Shown here in pieces: positions 13,056 to 54,041 of a stretch of DNA of 64,000 nt. A model generated the notes under the pieces. The model ran no database searches. It was not told where the DNA came from and worked only from the letters and a program-made list of their open reading frames with translations. The position numbers and the translations under genes were made by a program. The DNA lies in the IMG/VR virus record IMGVR_UViG_2937164673_000001; one strand, 5' to 3'. Positions within the stretch are counted from its first letter, which is position 1; the number at the start of each line of letters is the position of its first letter. The stretch is from an uncultured virus (IMG/VR IMGVR_UViG_2937164673_000001). Lineage: Duplodnaviria; Heunggongvirae; Uroviricota; Caudoviricetes.

Positions 13056-14270
13056 ATGATGGTTGAGAAGATTATGAAAGTTGCAAATGATTTGGGGTAT
13101 GGTTCTGTTAAAGCAAATGTTGATGGTGAGAATGTTAAGTTTCCGTCAGTTATAGCAGCGGAACGTCCACAAGATGTACAAGCTCCTATGGAATTTGATT
13201 CTAAACAAGATCAAGATACATATATGAAGAACTTCCTTAATAGTATGGATGTTAGTGTGTCAAGTAATGCAGTAAAAACTTCTGGAAGATTTTTAATTGG
13301 TAATGCTGCCATCGACAGTGGTCTATCTATGAGGGCTTTTGATGTTAATGACTTTACTGGCAAATCAGAAACAGATTTAGCAATTATTCTTACTTTAAGC
13401 TTGATAGCTGGAAAGAAAGTAAAAGAAGCATATGAAGCTGGACAAGACTTAAAGGAGACTCTAAAGGTAAAAGTTAATATGGCAACTGCGTTACCTATTT
13501 CAGAAGGTAAGGTAAATAATGCAAAAGATCGTTACAAAGAACGTTACATGGGTAGTACTCATACAGTAACTTTCCATAATTTCAAGGATCCGATTAATGT
13601 AACTATCGAATTTAATAAGGTATATGTTGCATTAGAAGGTGAAACAGCCCAAATGCTTATTTCCTCCGATTATGATGGATTAACAGATAAAATTAAGGAA
13701 GACTTTGATAAGAACTATTCAGAAATGAAGGATGAAGTTGAAGCTGACGACCTTATTAATTCACGAAATGTACTTGGTATTGATATCGGAGAAGGGACTA
13801 CTGATGTAGTAGCAATCATTAACGGTAAAGCTAATCCAGCAGCCTCAGCTTCCTTACCACAAGGCTATGGGAATGTATTACAGGATGCAGTACGTGTTCT
13901 TCAAGATCAACAAATGAACTTTGAAGAGCGTTCACAATTACAGAGTTTCTTATCTGAAAAGGTCAGTCCATTGCGTCGAGCTCGCCAAGATAAAGTACGT
14001 CAAGTAGTTTATGACCAATTAGAACCATTAGCTGACAAAATCATCGATACAGTTAGTCAAACAATGCGTATTGCTAAGGATACTGAGCTTGTTTATGTTT
14101 ATGGCGGAGGTTCTATTCCAATGTTGGATGAAAGTAATCTTCGTGAAGTGTTAAATGAAAAACTCAAGAGCTTCAGTGGTGGATATGATGTTCCAGTAAT
14201 TTGGATTGATAAAGAATATGCACAATATTTAAACGAATTAGGATTGCAAGTAATTGTTGAAGCCTTATAG
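13056..14270 (+). CDS. parM: Actin-like partition ATPase (ParM/Alp7A-like)
   Basis: DLGYGSVK phosphate-1, GIDIGEGTTD phosphate-2, VYGGGS adenosine motif. Confidence 0.9.
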   Translation: MMVEKIMKVANDLGYGSVKANVDGENVKFPSVIAAERPQDVQAPMEFDSKQDQDTYMKNFLNSMDVSVSSNAVKTSGRFLIGNAAIDSGLSMRAFDVNDFTGKSETDLAIILTLSLIAGKKVKEAYEAGQDLKETLKVKVNMATALPISEGKVNNAKDRYKERYMGSTHTVTFHNFKDPINVTIEFNKVYVALEGETAQMLISSDYDGLTDKIKEDFDKNYSEMKDEVEADDLINSRNVLGIDIGEGTTDVVAIINGKANPAASASLPQGYGNVLQDAVRVLQDQQMNFEERSQLQSFLSEKVSPLRRARQDKVRQVVYDQLEPLADKIIDTVSQTMRIAKDTELVYVYGGGSIPMLDESNLREVLNEKLKSFSGGYDVPVIWIDKEYAQYLNELGLQVIVEAL

Positions 14271-14284
14271 AGAGTGTGATTTTT

Positions 14285-14665
14285 ATGGCGAAAATGATTA
14301 GAAAAACTATCCTTATTCCTGAGGATTCAAAAGTTGCAAAATGGGCTAAAAATCAGTCGCAATTTTCTCCAGCTGCCATTAGAGCATTAGAAATGGTAGT
14401 TAGAAAATATGGAACTGGTGATCTTATCCAAGCTATTTTAGATAGTGCAAGCTTAGATGGACAGTTAGGTACAATTAACTCAGTTTCAAAACTAGAAGAA
14501 AAGACGTCGGTAGAAAAGAATGTTGATGTCGATGTTGCAGAAAAGCCCAAGCGCAAATTAAGGACAAGAATTGGAAATAAGAAAAACGATAATGATTCTA
14601 AAACTGATGATAGTTCTTTAAGTTCTAAATTGAAAAACAGGCCTAATTTGGATATGTTATCGTAA
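14285..14665 (+). CDS. ParR/Alp7R-like adaptor
   Basis: Downstream of parM; WAKNQSQFSPAAIRALEMVVRKYGTGD RHH-like N terminus and low-complexity tail. Confidence 0.7.
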   Translation: MAKMIRKTILIPEDSKVAKWAKNQSQFSPAAIRALEMVVRKYGTGDLIQAILDSASLDGQLGTINSVSKLEEKTSVEKNVDVDVAEKPKRKLRTRIGNKKNDNDSKTDDSSLSSKLKNRPNLDMLS

Positions 14666-14773
14666 TACTTAATCTGATTATGTGTGATTTAATTAGAACT
14701 TAGACATATAAAGTAATATAAAATACGAAAAGCCACAGCAACAGATAAACTACTTGCTGTGGCTTTTATTTTT

Positions 14774-14876
14774 AAACAAAAAAGAGCACCTATCAGGGTG
14801 CCCTACATTATACGAATACGGTTTAAGTAGTCAACTGAAACCAATGAATATTAGGTATATCTTTCTTATCTTGATA
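14774..14876 (-). ncRNA. sRNA array unit 1 (candidate orphan antitoxin)
   Basis: TGTTAAGAT extended -10 at 14890-14882; conserved stem-loop; GC hairpin plus U-tract terminator. Confidence 0.7.
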
Positions 14877-14896
14877 CTCATATCTTAACACGAATT

Positions 14897-14996
14897 AAAA
14901 CAAAAAAGGATACCTTTTCAGGTACCCCACGTTAAACCGGTACGGATCAAGTAACGAACTGAATCCAATTTGCGTGCCGATACTCTAGTATTGGTA
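14897..14996 (-). ncRNA. sRNA array unit 2 (candidate orphan antitoxin)
   Basis: TGTTATAAT at 15010-15002; same scaffold and terminator. Confidence 0.7.
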
Positions 14997-15016
14997 TATA
15001 AATTATAACATGAATT

Positions 15017-15116
15017 AAAACAAAAAAGGATGCCGATTAAGGCACCCTGCTTACCGGTACGGTCTAAGTAAACAACTGAGACCATTTTGCACTCGGTTTA
15101 TTTCTTTGTTTTAACA
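15017..15116 (-). ncRNA. sRNA array unit 3 (candidate orphan antitoxin)
   Basis: TGTTATAAT at 15130-15122; same scaffold and terminator. Confidence 0.7.
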
Positions 15117-15135
15117 AGTATATTATAACACATTT

Positions 15136-15233
15136 AAAAACAAAAAAAAGAGTACCTTTTCAGGTACCCCGCCGGCTCAGATATAAGGAGCTACCTTATA
15201 TCTAATTTGCACACCGACCTTATTGTCATTATG
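15136..15233 (-). ncRNA. sRNA array unit 4 (candidate cognate antitoxin of 15328-15450)
   Basis: TGATATAAT at 15247-15239; perfect 15-nt and 11-nt complementarity to the divergent mRNA. Confidence 0.75.
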
Positions 15234-15327
15234 TCTATATTATATCACACAATACATATGATACAATATCCTTGCACACCGAATGGGTAGCTCCCGTTTA
15301 ATCTGTGCAAGCTGGGAGGTGTCTCCC

Positions 15328-15450
15328 ATGGGACATTGGTTCCTTATTGTCATTATCGTGCCTAATGGGCTCGTTAAGCAACTGATGCATTGTGTAAAGG
15401 TTGCAATTAAAAAGGCTCTCAAGCACCTAACTGATGAATTACTTGGTTAA
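15328..15450 (+). CDS. 40-aa type I toxin-like peptide
   Basis: MGHWFLIVIIVPNGLVKQLMHCVKVAIKKALKHLTDELLG; SD GGGAGGT can be sequestered by TCTCCC; TGATACAAT promoter at 15259-15267. Confidence 0.65.
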   Translation: MGHWFLIVIIVPNGLVKQLMHCVKVAIKKALKHLTDELLG

Positions 15451-16655
15451 TTCTGAAAGGAGGTGGGCGAGATGTTATTTCAGCGGTGGTAATTATTTAC
15501 TGTCGCTGTTTTTTGTTTAAAGGACTTGTATAATATCTGTTTCGATAATTTAACTACATAATTGTTATCCATAAACAATCAAAACGAACAATGAATAATG
15601 GGGTTAAAAGCTTATTTTGATAAATTAATGTACTTTTGACTTACGACTCGTTAAGCCTATTCCACGTTGATATTTGGCTGCTTTTGAAGAGAAAAATCAA
15701 GAAAAAATAATTACATAAAAATGAAACAGCATTTTTTGATGACTTCACAAGCGGTAATAAAAATAGTAAGGGAGGATAGAAGATTTTTCCCTATTATAAT
15801 GGGTAAATAGCAGTGAAAGTATGGAAAATTGTTTACGTGAAAATAATGAACCAATACGAAATATATAATTATAGGTTATTAGAGTAAAAATACCCCGCAC
15901 CCTTTTTTAGTTTGTGAAATTTTCTAAAATTGAATGCTTGAAAATTCCTATATTATCGAAGATGTACTAATAAATGTCTCAAGTGAATAATAATTATAAA
16001 AAAGTACTACTAGATCCTATTAAATAGGATTTGGTATTAGTTCATTTTGGGGTAAAAAAATCAGCGATTTGAGTAAAAATATCAAAATGAAAAATAGGGA
16101 GTTTCGATAAGGTTAGTTACATGAGTAATAAGGTGCGAAATATTAGGATTGAGGAATTTTTAGTTTTGTGCAGTAAGGTAGATTGTTTCATAAATAAGTT
16201 AGGTACGCATAAAACGATGTTTTCATAACAATTTTTACTCATATTTTGGTCAGTTAGAATTGAATTCTTGAATTAGTGAAGGAAAATTCACAAAGTATAA
16301 TTAAATTCGGTATTATTGTCTATCTAGGAGACGAAAGTTTGTGAATCGAAGAATTGCTCATAGAGAGTTTCGAAGATTCTATTGGTTGCAAATTAGAGTG
16401 GCTTTGAGGGATTTTATGAAAATAATTGCTATGAAAGCGAGAGGGGTATTTTCTTTGTTTCAAAAAATGGCTATTTTGGGTGCGTAATATTTTCATAAAT
16501 TAGAATAATTGGGTATATAGTACGCAGAACATAAATATAAAAATGTACTACAAAACGATATATGTATCTATTTGCTGATAATACTTGATAAAGAACATTC
16601 GTTCGTGTATTATAACAAGGGAACATACGTTTAATCTAAGAATGGGGAAACAACA

Positions 16656-16982: not shown

Positions 16983-17459
16983 AGTCTAGGGTAATTCCTA
17001 GGCTCTTTATTTATATTTGAATGGGGAAGGGTGAGAGGAAGGGATATGGTATTGTGGTGAAATATTATGAAAGATATTTTCATAGTTTTGAAAAGGGTAA
17101 ATTTGGGAGTAATTTATTGGGGTATTTGAGGGGTAATAGGGTGCGAGAAATGGGGTGAATGGAGAAAATTTTGTGGTGTGTGAGTGAAGCAACTACCCTA
17201 AAATTCCCCCTAAAAATTAAGGCGTTTTGAGTAAAATAACCCCCGCCTATTTGCAAATTTTACACACAATAATAGTTGTTATCATGTGTAAACGGTTACA
17301 ATAATATTTTAATATAGAAAAAGGAAGCCCCTATCTTTTGATAAGGGCGATTATTATTTATAGGGGGTTACAGTTGTAAACTTAATATATTTATTTCAGT
17401 TGAGAGGTAGGGTGCTTTTTCACTAATTTAAATATATCGAATTTGGTATATAGTAATCA

Positions 17460-18140
17460 GCTATCACACAACCTAACACACTTCACACTCAATAACACCC
17501 ATCCACACCCCCAACCTAACACCGTTTACCCAATAAAACACACTACACACCGACCAACCAAACTAATTAATCACACAACCTAACACACCATACCACTCAC
17601 CAAACAAACACACCGCCCAATAAATTCAATCACTTAATAACTCAATCCACACCCCCTAATATAATAAATAACCGTTTACCTAACTAACATACATATAAAC
17701 CAAACTTACTCACTCAATACATACATATACATATCAATACTATACTACTCACTTACTACATCATTACAATAACATATAAAAACATTATCATATATCAAGC
17801 GTACTAATCACACTACACCCATACACTATACTCTCAGCCTTGACAATCTAACATTTACAAACGTAAATCAGTTACTCACTCACTACATTATATACATTAG
17901 TACACTATCACATTACTTCACTACACTATATACATCACTATGTAACGCTACTCACTCACTAACCTATATACATCTATACATGGACACGCATAACACTACA
18001 CTGTATCACTATCATAACAACACTACGCACATTACTATATACACATCACTGTACTACCTATACACTGCTATACTATATACATCACTATGTGAGCGTTACC
18101 ATATGACTGCAATACAAAAGGGCAACACGCTAAACACTAA
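17460..18140. repeat. G-poor, A/C-rich low-complexity tract with degenerate repeats
   Basis: Plus strand nearly G-free; ATCACACAACCTAACACAC at 17463 and 17570; ACTATATACATCACTATGT twice. Confidence 0.8.
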
Positions 18141-18379: not shown

Positions 18380-18481
18380 TTACCCCTTTAATTTTTTAAT
18401 AAACTTTCTAAAATTGAGAACACTCAACACAACTAAAAAAATACTAACTAATAAAACTAAACTATTTATAATAATTTGCAT
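18380..18481 (-). CDS. 33-aa hydrophobic peptide
   Basis: MQIIINSLVLLVSIFLVVLSVLNFRKFIKKLKG with GGGTG RBS. Confidence 0.6.
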   Translation of the reverse strand: MQIIINSLVLLVSIFLVVLSVLNFRKFIKKLKG

Positions 18482-18519
18482 AACTTTACACACCCTTTTT
18501 ATTGTGGTATTATACAATT

Positions 18520-18610
18520 AACAAAAAGGGAACGGCGCCACGTTCCCTCGATATAAGCATTTTAAGCCTTAACGTTTTTTACTTTTACGTTTTGGCTTTT
18601 TCTTATGCAA
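18520..18610 (+). ncRNA. Candidate convergent antitoxin RNA
   Basis: TGGTATTAT promoter near 18505; 5' hairpin GGGAAC/GTTCCC; overlaps the 3' end of the peptide gene 18569-18706. Confidence 0.55.
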
Positions 18611-18706
18611 TTTTTTATAAAACTTTTGTAAATTAAGTAATGCAATACTTAATATATATAAAGCGATTGAAAAATGCATAAAGGCGCTAAGAACGCCATC
18701 AACCAC
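18569..18706 (-). CDS. 45-aa type I toxin-like peptide
   Basis: MVDGVLSAFMHFSIALYILSIALLNLQKFYKKLHKKKPKRKSKKR: hydrophobic helix plus basic tail; AGGGGTG RBS; own promoter near 18790. Confidence 0.65.
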   Translation of the reverse strand: MVDGVLSAFMHFSIALYILSIALLNLQKFYKKLHKKKPKRKSKKR

Positions 18707-19354
18707 GCTTACACCCCTTTTCTACACTATAAGAATAGCCGTAGATGATGCGGGTTGATAAGCTGTTCTAATAGCTTACATATATTATCATAACACATAA
18801 TTATAAATAGTCAACCTATATTTATTTTTTTGTTTGCTAATTTTTCTATTATATTTTTTCTTCCTTATATAGAAATAAAAAGGGGCGTTATTGTATAATA
18901 AAAAAGGAAGTGGTCGCAACACTTCCCAAATATTCATAAATGTAAACTATTTAGATTGCCCCTTGTCTTTATCTGACTTGTGGGCTTTTTCTTATGCAAT
19001 TATTGACTTTCAGAAATAACAATGTTTAAATTATTTTAGCCCCTTAAGGAAAGGGGGTGGGAACATTGCTTTTCTTTATAATAAAAACGCCAAAGCATTA
19101 TAAATTTAAGTTGCACCTTAAATTTAACAGCTTCAGCATTCAACTAATTATAAAGTGGTAATATAATCTCACCACCCTAAAGGTTAACCGACAAGTTAAC
19201 AACCTTTAGGGGCTTTCCTGTATCTATATTATAACAATCTAGTAATATCATATCAACAAATATATAATACCACAATAAAATGTGATATAATGTAATTGTA
19301 ATAAAAATCTCCCTGGGTTGAGCCGTCACACAACAACTCAGGGAAGTGATTACA

Positions 19355-19453
19355 CTACTTTATAATGATGATTTTAAGAAATAACTTTATTAGGCTACAC
19401 TCAAAGTAAAAAGCCTTGTAGGGTTGTTTCTTTTCTTTTTCATTATGTTTCAT
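19355..19453 (-). CDS. 32-aa peptide, type I toxin-like
   Basis: MKHNEKEKKQPYKAFYFECSLIKLFLKIIIIK; SD AAGGAGGTG inside hairpin CTCCTT-GAGT-AAGGAG; opposing TGATATAAT promoter near 19283. Confidence 0.55.
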   Translation of the reverse strand: MKHNEKEKKQPYKAFYFECSLIKLFLKIIIIK

Positions 19454-19620
19454 GTTGTCACCTCCTTACTCAAGGAGATATAACAATTTTAAACTTAAGT
19501 ATTGTAATAGTCAATTACTGAATGATGTAGTTTTATTTCTGTTGAGTATGATATAATTCAAAGCGCTATCACTATTTATTATTTTTGAATACTATTTCAA
19601 AATAAAGGTGGTGATACATT

Positions 19621-19719
19621 TTGACCTTGTTAACTCTCATCTTAAAATATCTATTACAATTACTTATTGCAATAGCGCCCGTTGTGGTCGCTTGGTATCT
19701 TGATAAATATCATAAGTAA
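19621..19719 (+). CDS. Fst/Lpt-like type I toxin
   Basis: MTLLTLILKYLLQLLIAIAPVVVAWYLDKYHK; bidirectional terminator near 19748-19785; direct repeat of the translation-start region at 19791-19820; convergent promoter near 19830. Confidence 0.75.
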   Translation: MTLLTLILKYLLQLLIAIAPVVVAWYLDKYHK

Positions 19720-19744
19720 TTAAATAGATTAGTGGTAGTTACAA

Positions 19745-19822
19745 AATAAAAGCCTTTTAGTATTTGCGGTACTAAAAGGCTTTTTGTATAGTGATACATC
19801 TTGACCACTAACACTCATCTGT
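19745..19822 (-). ncRNA. RNAII-like antitoxin of the Fst-like toxin
   Basis: GTGATACATCTTGACC...CTCATCT repeats GTGATACATTTTGACC...CTCATCT around the toxin start; par(pAD1)-type layout. Confidence 0.65.
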
Positions 19823-50145: not shown

Positions 50146-50218
50146 GGACCTATAGTTTAACTGGATAGAACAGTAGTCTTCTAAACTACCAACCTTGGTT
50201 CGAGTCCAAGTGGGTCTA
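50146..50218 (+). tRNA. tRNA-Arg(TCT)
   Basis: Cloverleaf; anticodon loop CTTCTAA; GGTTCGAGTCC T arm. Confidence 0.9.
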
Positions 50219-50220
50219 TC

Positions 50221-50358
50221 GCGAAGAGTGGAAAGACAATAGTGCATTTTGGAAGTACACACTCCCTATATCTTTTAAGTTGATAATACAAATACACCTT
50301 TCTAATTTTTAATCATCCATGTTTGTCTTTTACAGAGGTTCGACTCCTCTGCTTCGCA
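50221..50358 (+). ncRNA. tRNA-like element (acceptor plus T arm, long insert)
   Basis: GCGAAG/CTTCGC stem; AGAGG-TTCGACT-CCTCT. Confidence 0.55.
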
Positions 50359-50585
50359 TAGGGCAGAAATGCCCGAAATTATTAAACATTTATGTGCTGT
50401 GTTTGATAATCGAAAATTGTTATTTTTTTATCACCTTCTTTTTGTTAACACACTGCGGTTCGATTCCGTTTTGTGTTATTCCCAGCTAAGTGGTTGGGCT
50501 GGGGAACTCCTTTCATGGTTAAGCACCTCCGAAATATGAAAGATTGGTTAGTCAGATAAGATATGTGTGATCTTATCTTGACAAG

Positions 50586-50656
50586 TTTCGGTATAGCTCA
50601 ATGGTAGAGCAACATTATGTAGTGTAGATATGTGGTTCGATTCCCATTACCGAAAT
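50586..50656 (+). tRNA. tRNA-like RNA with collapsed anticodon loop
   Basis: Acceptor, D arm TAGCTCAATGGTAGAGC and T loop present; anticodon loop about 4 nt. Confidence 0.65.
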
Positions 50657-50807
50657 TCCTAGAAATAGGTTGTTCCAAATGACGGAAAACGTTTGGAATG
50701 TAAAATCACCTAACGTATGTTCAATAGGTTATATTTTCCATATACCTTTACCTTTACATTTTTCAATTCGATCATTGTTATGTATTTGTTGAAATGCATA
50801 ACAGGAT

Positions 50808-50890
50808 GCCTAGGTAGCGAAGTGGTTAAACGCTGCGGACTGTAAATCCGCCACCTTTTGGTTTCGGGGGTTCGAATCCCTCCCTGGGCA
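50808..50890 (+). tRNA. tRNA-Tyr(GTA)
   Basis: Anticodon loop CTGTAAA; long variable arm. Confidence 0.92.
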
Positions 50891-50902
50891 TTAAGAACTA
50901 AT

Positions 50903-51496
50903 ATGAAGAAAGGAGTAAGAGTGCATATGCCACTTAATGATGACTTAATTAGAGATATTCTGAAAAATGTTGCTATACATGGTGTAAAGGGGAATAACCT
51001 TACTAGCATCATAGCTGAACTTCCTGGATATTCAGAAAAGGCAATTTTGGAAACCCTTAACTGGATGGAAATAAATGATTTCATTGGTAAAACACAATTA
51101 GAAAACTACATTCTATCTTATTATGGACGGTATGTGTTTGGAGTTATCGCCGATGATTCAGTTTGGGAATACGCAAAAAGCGAGTACACCAAACGAAATT
51201 GCAAAACATGGTCTTGGAGTTCTAAGGTTAGAATTGCCACTCAATACCTGAAAAAGTATGATCCTGAGGCTCCTGTAAAATTTGACTATTTGCCATATAA
51301 GAATGAGGAAAAAGGCACCTTATATTACTACAAAGATAAAGAGGGCAATAACATTCCTGCCTTTGGTGATTATAAGGGCGCATCGATTATGATTGACGAC
51401 AAGAATGTTGATCGAGTTTTAGAGTTCTTTCCACAAGCTAAGAATAACTTATATGTGGTATATCAAGGTGTGGAATTCAAGATTAATAATGTTTAA
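50903..51496 (+). CDS. Hypothetical protein (winged-helix-like N terminus)
   Basis: Start likely 50921 or 50927 after AAGGAG; the ORF-track start overlaps the tRNA. Confidence 0.65.
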   Translation: MKKGVRVHMPLNDDLIRDILKNVAIHGVKGNNLTSIIAELPGYSEKAILETLNWMEINDFIGKTQLENYILSYYGRYVFGVIADDSVWEYAKSEYTKRNCKTWSWSSKVRIATQYLKKYDPEAPVKFDYLPYKNEEKGTLYYYKDKEGNNIPAFGDYKGASIMIDDKNVDRVLEFFPQAKNNLYVVYQGVEFKINNV

Positions 51497-51923
51497 CCAT
51501 TTAATGGTGAGAAGTAGGGTAGGACAGCAGGCGACCTAAGCCGCACGAAACTGTCCATGTTGCGGCAGGCAGTTTACTGAAAGTTCTTCTGCCAGTAAAA
51601 TGATTCTTTTATAAAGTTTTTGCGTCTTTAAATTGCTGTTGTAACAGCGATAAGATAATAAACTTATTTATATAATCTGATTACGGCTCACGTAGGGCTT
51701 CGAAATACAGCATAATTACCCACCTCGGTGTTCGTGTGAATACAAAAGAAATAGGTATGACAGATAAGAAAGAGGCTGTCTTGTTCAAGATTAATCAGAT
51801 TAACGTGGAGCTTGACTCCTTAATGGCTTGGGGCGAATTCGTCCTCGTGTTGATGTCTTTTGCTGACAAGTTTCAACCGTCACGTAAAAGCGGAAATGAA
51901 ACGATACATGTATTATGTTTGGA

Positions 51924-51978
51924 AGCCTTGTCTGATGGTGCCAGGAAGATTGATTGGGTTCGATCCCCAACAAGGCTA
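51924..51978 (+). ncRNA. Mini tRNA-like element lacking an anticodon arm
   Basis: AGCCTTG/CAAGGCT acceptor; TTGGG-TTCGATC-CCCAA. Confidence 0.6.
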
Positions 51979-52235
51979 TTTCAGATAGTTCTTTATAGAA
52001 TGGTCAGCTTAAGATCGACTGAACTGTCTGAAAATGATTTGCCTAGTTATAGACCACATCTTCGCAATGCGAAGGTATCTACTAGAAATAGTAGTGATTA
52101 ATCGCGGACAGAATTGCTAAGTTAATGTCCATCAAAAAGATATAAGCTCTAAGAGTAATCAGATTGATACTTAGCACAATCAACAAGCTCTTAACTTATC
52201 AGTTCACCATCTAACGTTTCTGGGTGGATAACTAT

Positions 52236-52307
52236 TGCCTTATCGTCTAATTGGTAGGACACGACTCTTTGGAAGTCGCAATGTTGGTTCGAGACCAGCT
52301 AAGGCAA
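52236..52307 (+). tRNA. tRNA-Gln(TTG)
   Basis: Anticodon loop CTTTGGA; U1-A72 pair. Confidence 0.9.
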
Positions 52308-52619
52308 TTAACTTGATAAATTATCCCTTCGCGGTGGCAAGGTTAGTGTCTCCACCTAAGTTTGCCGAGAATGGGCTGTTTACAGCGCACAAAGTGGAGT
52401 CGGTGCCATTCGGTAATTTATCAAGTTTTGGTTCTAGTGTGCCGTCGCTAGAATTGTATTTCACTTAACGGAGCGGAGAGTAAATCCAGTATGTCCTTGG
52501 AAACATAGACTGTAAAACTGGTGTCTCGAAGTCAACACGAGGGTAGAATACCTGGTATTGTTGGCATGTGATAGCAGCGGGGTGTAGCTGCGAATATAAA
52601 TAAATCACCTCTTTATTAC

Positions 52620-52696
52620 ACTCCAGTAACTCAGTCAGGTTAGAGTGCACAACTTATAATTGTGAGGTCGCTTTGGTTCAAATCCAGCCTGGAGTA
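52620..52696 (+). tRNA. tRNA-Ile(TAT)
   Basis: CACAA-CTTATAA-TTGTG anticodon arm; bulged T stem. Confidence 0.78.
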
Positions 52697-53123
52697 TTGC
52701 CATTATGGCAAAGAACAATCCCTTTGCATTAAAGGTTACGACCGATCGCAGAGGTTTTATCGAGGGGTTATCACATCCCACTTGCTGACCTGAACAGTTT
52801 AATAAAATCAGGATTTTATAAAAGACAGGTACAATATTCGCTGACGGAACGTAGGCATGTGCGGAATCCGTGAGTGGGGCTAGGCTACGCCAACTCTCTA
52901 TCGGTAGACAGTAGCAATTATGTCGGAGATAGGAATGAGTGATGTTAAGGTCTTGAAATGAGTCTCCCTTAACAAGAACATATCAAAACATTCAGCGAGT
53001 AACGACAGCGCCCCTTAGCAGGGATAAGGACTATGCCCATCCTATGAAGCTAGTAGGAATAAATGTGGAATAAGGCAAAAGCTGTTAGGGGTTCCACCAG
53101 AATAAATATTTTGATATATAAGT

Positions 53124-53197
53124 AACACATTAGCTCAGCTAGGTAGAGCACTTACCGAAATGGTAAGAGGTCACAGGTTCAAATCCTGTATGTGTTA
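53124..53197 (+). tRNA. tRNA with non-canonical anticodon loop (CGAAATG)
   Basis: Canonical acceptor, D and T arms; no U33, and the loop can pair further. Confidence 0.65.
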
Positions 53198-53259
53198 TAG
53201 ACTTCATTAAGAAGTCGATTTGAGTTATTATTTGGAGTTATGATTTAAAGCTCTATTCT

Positions 53260-53634
53260 GGGGTAGTTTATGGATTCGACAGTCAGACAAAGCCCTAAAT
53301 ACGACTTACGGAAGATAACGCCGAAATACTTTCATTTAAATATAAAAGCAAATAACCATAGAGTTACAGCTTTAGCTGCCTAGCTTATAGGCACTTGGTT
53401 AATATCTTGATACCAGATAAGGATATTAACTATCATATTTCACCCCTCTGGTCTTAGTTCATGATTTGCTAGTTTGAGTGTGACTAAGTATTAAAACTAG
53501 CTAGACTAGGTAGTTTTTGGAAAATTACTATGTAACGTTCCCTAAGTCGAAAATTTAGAACATAGTCCTATTAAGTCTAAAATGTATTTGGAAACTGGTT
53601 TGGTTGGACACGGGTTCGACTCCCGTCTACTCCA
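53260..53634 (+). ncRNA. ssrA: tmRNA
   Basis: 5' GGGGTAGTTTATGGATTCGAC; tag ORF ANNHRVTALAA*; 3' GGACACGGGTTCGACTCCCGTCTACTCCA. Confidence 0.93.
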
Positions 53635-53638
53635 TATT

Positions 53639-53762
53639 CACAACTCTTTCAGGTTGCGGGTTCGAGTCCCGTCTCCGGCACGTGATACATGGTCACAATA
53701 GTTGCCAGAGTAGCTCAATCCTATACTGCTAAAAGGTATACGGCAGAGCGGTCAGACTTGTG
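53639..53762 (+). ncRNA. Circularly permuted tRNA mimic (YrlA/Y-RNA-like topology)
   Basis: T arm precedes a closed acceptor-like stem, then the D arm; terminal CACAA/TTGTG stem. Confidence 0.65.
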
Positions 53763-53981
53763 AAGAAGACGTGTATCCGTCTATAAATGGAAACGTGGCA
53801 TCTAAGGTTACACCACCGTTAATATGTAGCTGGAAGAGGGTAGCTCCCTCATTTGTTAGAAATTTCTTTTAGAAAACCATGGCGATTTAGGTAAACGTAG
53901 AACCTAGCTCCTATCCGTGTAATAAATTTGTGAGCTTAAAACAAGATCTTATGGAATGTTGGTGAGTGTACAAAGCCGACA

Positions 53982-54041
53982 GAGGTAGTAGTTCAATTGG
54001 TAGATCATGCTAGGATGTGGGTTCGATTCCCATCTACCTCA
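53982..54041 (+). ncRNA. 60-nt tRNA mimic without an anticodon arm
   Basis: GAGGTAG/CTACCTC acceptor, D arm, T arm GTGGG-TTCGATT-CCCAT. Confidence 0.7.

Follow-up and report, generated by a model that had tools for sequence, protein, structure and literature searches.

The 64,000-nucleotide stretch of DNA analysed here (the window; G000:C1:62001-126000 of a 129,215-base virus record) probably carries a type I toxin-antitoxin (TA) locus of an undescribed family, alongside which antitoxins of foreign origin are stored in a row. On a wider reading, which we hold tentatively and at a little under an even chance, Limosilactobacillus reuteri phage-plasmids would hold an RNA memory against addiction modules that is both heritable and ordered, with orphan antitoxins kept as they disarm competing plasmids and prophages. 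Just as tentatively, the memory units would be self-contained 120-bp antisense genes for own or rival toxin specificities, with cassette exchange adding new units at one end.

The array lies on a 129-kb L. reuteri-type element of a gut lactobacillus, which is a phage-plasmid because it encodes both phage proteins (portal and terminase-like) and plasmid proteins (RepA_N, ParA and ParM). The records nearest to it come from L. reuteri plasmids that measure 52-133 kb and are typed rep_cluster_2483. The array slot is directly 3' of parM, whose product is annotated as ParM/StbA in sister plasmids, and of a small gene that gave no match in a Pfam search, is kept before the slot in relatives and probably encodes a ParR-like partner (Table 1). 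A Sak4-like annealing protein is encoded by the element, and at the array itself no dedicated recombinase or sites were found, the neighbours being parMR and small ORFs and an integrase lying ~17 kb off.

Table 1. Positions in the window of the antitoxin units, the resident toxin gene and the adjoining partition genes.
Feature	Position	Strand	Elements or basis
ParM/Alp-type actin-like partition ATPase (context)	13056..14270	+	Pfam ALP_N, MreB-like_C
Small gene 3' of parM, probable ParR-like partner (context)	14276..14665	+	ORF; role inferred from position
Unit 1, orphan antitoxin, type A	14775..14893	-	-10 14882-14887 (TAAGAT), terminator 14783-14804
Unit 1 pairing elements	CDS seed 14856-14873, loop 14825-14836	-
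Unit 2, orphan antitoxin, type B	14899..15013	-	-10 15002-15007, terminator 14907-14928
Unit 2 pairing elements	seeds 14969-14993, loop 14949-14960	-
Unit 3, orphan antitoxin, type C	15019..15133	-	-10 15122-15127, terminator 15027-15048
Unit 3 pairing elements	seeds 15085-15114, loop 15066-15077	-
Unit 4, cognate antitoxin, type D	15139..15250	-	-10 15239-15244, terminator 15149-15170
Unit 4 pairing elements	seeds 15207-15232, loop 15187-15195	-
Toxin extended -10	15259-15267	+	within leader region 15259..15327; layout same in relatives
Structured toxin leader	15259..15327	+	target site 15272-15282, hairpin 15285-15295, SD-sequestering hairpin 15314-15327
40-aa putative toxin	15328..15450	+	antitoxin target 15342-15356; family alignment
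Toxin mRNA terminator	15481..15518	+	terminator scan; kept in relatives

Four minus-strand sRNA units are present as the first-pass annotation had described them, each with an extended -10, a seed, a hairpin and a terminator; the -10 boxes start exactly where it had placed them, the four terminators were recovered, and the related scaffold was confirmed with a mean column identity of 74%. The -10 box reads TATAAT in three units and TAAGAT in unit 1, with TG one base upstream of each, and 0/4 of these promoters were listed by a -35/-10 scan, as expected because they have no -35 box. Start-to-start spacing of the units is 124/120/122, terminator-like sites in 14000-16200 number 7 against 1.1 +/- 1.1 in shuffled sequence, and the folding z-scores of units 1-4 are -2.5, -1.6, -4.6 and -5.1. 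A variable 5' segment of about 20 nt had been proposed; such a segment exists, but it spans ~30-35 nt, and the hairpin loop contributes a third pairing site. Transcription of the units is predicted from these signals, and four RNA-labelled runs, which consist of contigs only and are probably DNA in three cases, give no start, strand or level.

The divergent mRNA encodes a 40-aa ORF, as had been claimed, but the description of it as unannotated did not hold, since RefSeq sister plasmids carry it as the hypothetical protein WP_263850983.1. The peptide has a short hydrophobic N-terminus (mean hydrophobicity 1.17 at residues 4-11), a VP hinge and then a Lys-rich amphipathic helix (hydrophobic moment ~0.55). 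Folding placed the toxin SD in a hairpin, in agreement with the earlier proposal of a sequestered SD, and the two perfect matches of unit 4 to this mRNA were also found (15207-15217 with 15272-15282, and 15218-15232 with 15342-15356). No unit makes a longer split match than this 11+15 pair anywhere in the 129-kb genome, and unit 4 scored -52.9 kcal/mol against the resident mRNA. At 15455-15492 (+) we also observed a second SD and a six-codon ORF, which overlaps the toxin terminator and is kept with the long peptide type; this SD could also pair with the leader anti-SD, a pairing absent from the MFE fold. Separately, the VP codons form a small hairpin (15358-15372, +) of which the family keeps the stem while the loop varies, and this motif may be constrained as RNA too.

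Across relatives, sRNA and mRNA co-vary at three sites, namely the early CDS, the leader and the hairpin loop, and in the last of these the sRNA hairpin loop matches the leader hairpin loop, clearly in types A and B and weakly in type D. The divergent type I TA reading of the first-pass annotation is supported by the sequence, with its bipartite pairing replaced by pairing at three sites. Using three-site energies for 51 distinct pairs, cognates averaged -45.3 kcal/mol compared with -27.4 +/- 6.6 between classes, and the best-scoring toxin fell in the antitoxin's own class for 39/51; specificity is therefore incomplete, as 12/51 cognate pairs scored better with another class, the site being mis-anchored by the parser in some of them. 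When one pair was taken for each of 21 classes, the cognate was strictly best by identity in 18/21, and each of the three pairing sites exceeded 20000/20000 permutations. Likewise, the sRNA hairpins covary, with double changes in 9/13 pairs among the 44/77 distinct units aligned, a figure that relatedness inflates. The locus shows two traits of a type I TA system, a small peptide ORF with a hidden SD and an adjacent, complementary, co-varying sRNA gene.

Copies of the module were detected with BLAST and pattern scans on plasmids, phages, viral contigs, metagenomes and genomes, in the layout terminator, hairpin, seed and extended -10, followed by a short A/T spacer and then extended -10, leader, hidden SD, peptide and terminator. 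A DNA match to the family was present in 43/74 Limosilactobacillus genomes, and the same layout occurs on Ligilactobacillus plasmids, including those of Ligilactobacillus salivarius. A unit profile placed units in 109/169 loci and the remainder were dropped as chance pattern matches, while chance matches of the toxin pattern scans in unrelated taxa were removed where no unit was present. In the later set we counted 83 distinct unit-plus-toxin pairs, 14 fusions and 42 units for which no toxin was parsed, the last figure including parser misses, and a metagenome scan gave at least 80 stretches. An RNA model matched 7/151 family genomes, six of them shared with the Limosilactobacillus genus search and one marginal, and missed diverged Ligilactobacillus modules that BLAST detected.

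The family peptides are mostly 24-40 aa, with ~8 hydrophobic residues, an invariant VP and a Lys-rich amphipathic helix, and their frame is kept by three start codons and by length variants. Single-base codon differences were synonymous/non-synonymous in 20/25 and 16/15 (20/45 and 16/31 synonymous). About a quarter would be synonymous without selection, and the higher shares suggest a coding constraint that is modest. In the array region Rfam gave no match at gathering score, only chance-level ones (E 0.5-8), no Pfam, NCBIfam or PHROG match was obtained for the peptide or RNA family, an atlas search reached a top score of 0.77 with an unnamed entry below lead level, and in a peptide profile search the best 16 of 17 proteins were all family members. 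Judged from sequence, this is very probably a real and widespread type I TA family, and apparently one without earlier description; the literature covered, mostly non-subscription and exclusive of the T1TAdb entries and the Fozo 2010 supplements, contained no report of the family or of type I orphan arrays.

Several variants of the module were observed during these searches. A small-plasmid subfamily (L190-L192 and L198) has LP in place of VP in the peptide with the RNA layout unchanged, and three loci in Limosilactobacillus genomes (L154, L230 and L234) hold tandem complete modules of differing specificity, with up to four units in L234. In genome G005 two adjoining units without a parsed toxin are followed by an inverted VPNKH stretch (L209, 1470-1720), and in L021 and L022 a short promoter-to-terminator unit of unrelated sequence, oriented like the module, abuts it upstream of the antitoxin at a similar junction.

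Units 1-3 had been reported to lack a target in the window, and none that is good was found across the whole 129-kb genome, where their exact matches reach 11-12 nt at most, their best split pairs (19-20 nt) have no ORF context, and the VP-codon motif occurs once; nor is there a target of units 1-3 among the small hydrophobic ORFs at 18380-19720. The predicted split targets in homologous small-peptide genes were found for all three orphans on other replicons, so that each orphan has its matching toxin on another element, as anti-addiction would have it, and the hydrophobic codon runs noticed in units 1-3 are the real N-termini of the cognate peptides. Unit 1 is of a type that L084 and plasmid pLR-MDIIE43-2 (L014) carry next to its own toxin, with 28/30 identities to its best toxin (L084) and 21/30 to the resident one, and energies of -42.0 and -19.7 kcal/mol, respectively. 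Cognates of unit 2 are in L012, L018, L034, L088 and L103, all in the parMR slot of sister replicons (-45.3 kcal/mol with the best toxin, -22.4 with the resident), and unit 2 also fits the L032 toxin in a prophage region (-40.1 kcal/mol). Unit 3 and the L118 cognate antitoxin differ internally by one base, which lies in the loop, and unit 3 showed 29/30 identities and -37.5 kcal/mol with its best toxin compared with 20/30 and -16.9 kcal/mol with the resident. The type C cognate comes from one metagenome contig only; L084 and L118 are short metagenome contigs which we read as plasmid-like from a resolvase-like gene in L084 and a downstream gene that the two have in common with L104. Type A and type C toxin leaders each had 0 matches in viral contigs, and among five plasmid records and a few genomes no strain paired an orphan with its cognate toxin on a separate replicon.

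Comparison of unit number and seeds, proposed at first pass for related phages, gave 12 arrays with one common order across related replicons: A,B,C,D in the window; F,B,C,D (L009, preceded by a complete E module); B,C,D (L010/L011); A,F,B (L012 and L034); A,B (L088); E',B (L018); B,C,E'' (L067); A,E'' (L028/L036/L087 and L073); A,D (L115); and A,C fused to a toxin remnant in L016. The L016 array follows an endolysin; the other 11/12 are at parMR. The toxin matches the last unit in 11/11 intact arrays. The order is acyclic, with 0 conflicts among 9 repeated pairs, and random orders were equally consistent in 0/20000 trials, or 1/20000 for the 10 distinct compositions, values that overstate significance because the arrays share ancestry; the order breaks when subtypes E' and E'' are merged. 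The first-pass view of the four units as an expansion of one locus was not upheld, the units being copies of separate cognate antitoxins, and duplication in place followed by divergence was rejected as the origin of the array, as near-identical copies of the units exist elsewhere with their own toxin. Furthermore, from the VP codons onward the DNA of B toxins (L034, L088 and L103) and of the D toxin at the parMR slot is nearly identical, while the tail differs in D-type toxins located elsewhere; orphan units end a few bases beyond their -10 box, and terminator variants and seeds occur in free combination. This suggests that arrays grow by cassette replacement with the old antitoxin left behind, and we infer that the specificity cassette is exchanged between two short boxes, possibly aided by the Sak4-like protein.

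In the mechanism that we propose, back-to-back extended -10 promoters would produce a ~250-nt mRNA, the leader of which hides its SD, and a non-overlapping sRNA of ~95 nt. The sRNA hairpin loop would contact the leader hairpin loop, an internal segment would pair with the 5' leader, and the free 5' tail would cover codons 5-10, thereby blocking translation of a putatively membrane-active peptide, and beside parMR such a module may stabilise the replicon. The specificity cassette would consist of the antitoxin, the promoters, the leader and the first ~10 codons, and would be swapped by recombination at short boxes that are conserved, namely the -10 box at its left and the VP codons at its right. 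An incoming cassette would replace the old leader while the old antitoxin stays with its promoter and terminator, and units would therefore accumulate in order, newest next to the toxin. The retained orphan RNAs would neutralise the toxins that sister replicons, small plasmids and prophages encode, allowing the element to displace or outlast rivals without host killing.

The same cassette swaps could have left the orphans as scars of a real TA family, giving brief protection at most and then decaying. This is a real rival because each window orphan carries a weakening change: unit 1 has a drifted leader seed (-6.1 compared with -11.1 kcal/mol) and an altered -10 box, unit 2 is changed at the 5' end of its seed and unit 3 in its loop. 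Units also come and go among relatives, and decayed modules are common, with 14 distinct seed-to-CDS fusions and, in L024 and L167, a truncated or frameshifted peptide, the usual route being a deletion between the seed and the CDS repeat in which both promoters are lost. We nevertheless consider passive scars unlikely, as the loop and the 14-nt CDS seed are invariant in 8/8 A-type orphans while the scaffold around them (terminator, linker and leader seed) varies. Orphans also retain promoters and terminators, with an extended -10 of TATAAT in 19/20 of the distinct toxin-less units listed (window unit 1, merged with L034, has TAAGAT), their junctions are uniform, 10-13 nt apart, and a separately built antisense unit occupies the same slot. 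Provided that the TA family is real, it is reasonably probable that the orphans are useful and that selection has kept them. The separately built unit is sRNA-like and was seen in two records only, in the parMR slot of L263 (~2520-2620, +) and upstream of the A orphan in L073; it has an extended -10, a stretch of ~55 nt that runs antisense to the start and opening 16 codons of a family toxin, and then a terminator. Its antisense stretch covers the conserved VPNKH hairpin, and the unit is possibly a broader antitoxin.

The first-pass annotation had placed the targets in host or rival elements and joined anti-addiction with anti-defence; we found the targets on plasmids, sister phage-plasmids and prophages, and for this reason anti-addiction or replicon competition fits better than anti-defence. 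Under the latter, host or prophage peptides would cause abortive infection, which the antitoxins of the phage-plasmid would counter in lytic growth, much as pseudo-ToxI serves phage PhiTE. The portal and terminase genes of the element fit such a role, as do the prophage toxin matched by unit 2 and the modules that adjoin prophage lysins and occur in chromosomes, sometimes in tandem, but arrays are also carried by 52-58 kb plasmids, 11/12 arrays are beside parMR, the best targets are on plasmids and sister replicons, and the promoters look constitutive, which makes anti-defence improbable. More improbable still is that the peptide would be a regulated membrane microprotein rather than a toxin, its level or that of other mRNAs being tuned by the sRNAs. 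The hydrophobic stretch of ~8 residues is too short for a membrane-spanning helix and the peptide has no family match; against this, the hidden SD, the dedicated co-evolving sRNA and the 21 specificity classes are traits of addiction modules, of which a mobile-element location and frequent loss by deletion are also typical.

Among Gram-positive plasmid type I systems, Fst/RNAII (par of pAD1) and Lpt/RNAII of Lacticaseibacillus use two DNA direct repeats and a loop-loop contact, and hold the SD in a 5' stem-loop (PMC7472228, in the parts available). The modules described here resemble them in having two repeats, read in opposite directions, a loop contact and a hidden SD. In contrast to the Fst and Lpt genes, which converge on a common terminator (bidirectional in Fst), the genes here diverge without overlap and have separate terminators, the loop contact is at the leader hairpin, and the peptide lacks both PXXXG (P is followed by NGLV, NKHV or SKHI) and a hydrophobic helix of full length. 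Membership of Fst/Ldr (including Lpt) was not indicated by any match in Pfam, NCBIfam or Rfam, and the Lpt surveys, as far as their available text goes, cover convergent systems (PMC8003834). An upstream, non-overlapping antitoxin is likewise found in ShoB/OhsC, TisB/IstR-1, Zor/Orz and DinQ/AgrB (PMC8594479, PMC2887945), which are Gram-negative, whereas our modules are in Lactobacillaceae hosts; Zor pairs in one leader block rather than at three sites with one in the CDS, and Pfam, NCBIfam and Rfam models gave no homology to ShoB, TisB, Zor or DinQ. The Gram-positive families covered in the accessible T1TAdb text overlap at the 3' end (PMC8594479), and that text lists the present layout for Gram-negative bacteria only, which makes an apparently undescribed family of this kind of interest. 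With ~20 classes it may offer a readable three-site specificity code, and its orthogonal pairs are possible tools for plasmid stabilisation or curing in probiotic species.

A phage-borne RNA antitoxin array against the toxin of another element is known from the type III pseudo-ToxI of phage PhiTE, whose repeats arose by expansion and recombination (PMC3475682, in part). Those repeats bind a protein toxin with one specificity, whereas the units here are separate antisense genes, each having a promoter, a terminator and a target of its own. Rows of orphan antidotes against the toxins of rivals occur in the rAID arrays of Bacteroidales (PMC12247911), and orphan type II antitoxins act in anti-addiction against rivals' toxins (PMC7354431), both as given in the available sections. 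Both are proteins, and rAID arrays have a dedicated recombinase, while the array here consists of 120-bp RNA genes with none adjacent. CRISPR arrays and integrons are ordered, polarised stores of past specificities. Unlike these, the present array has neither repeats or spacers nor Cas, no integrase or attC was seen at it, and it would grow by homologous cassette exchange. If our reading is true, the array may be an ordered immunity store against competitors, the antisense-RNA counterpart of orphan-immunity arrays. Anti-addiction as a common use of orphans has yet to be shown even for protein antitoxins, according to the part of PMC7354431 available, and the natural matched and mismatched antitoxin-toxin pairs make the hypothesis of RNA-antitoxin anti-addiction and plasmid competition testable.

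Elsewhere in the window, further short hydrophobic peptide ORFs with an SD lie at 18380-19800 (18380-18517, 18569-18706 and 19621-19719) and are possibly more type I TA loci. Promoter-terminator signals oppose some of these ORFs, and 19621-19719 matched no Pfam family at cut-off. A strongly skewed, A/C-rich low-complexity tract at ~17400-18140 is possibly a replication-related or end-like region, and region 50146-54041 has seven matches to tRNAs along with a phage-borne tmRNA (53260-53637), followed by an RNA ligase gene.
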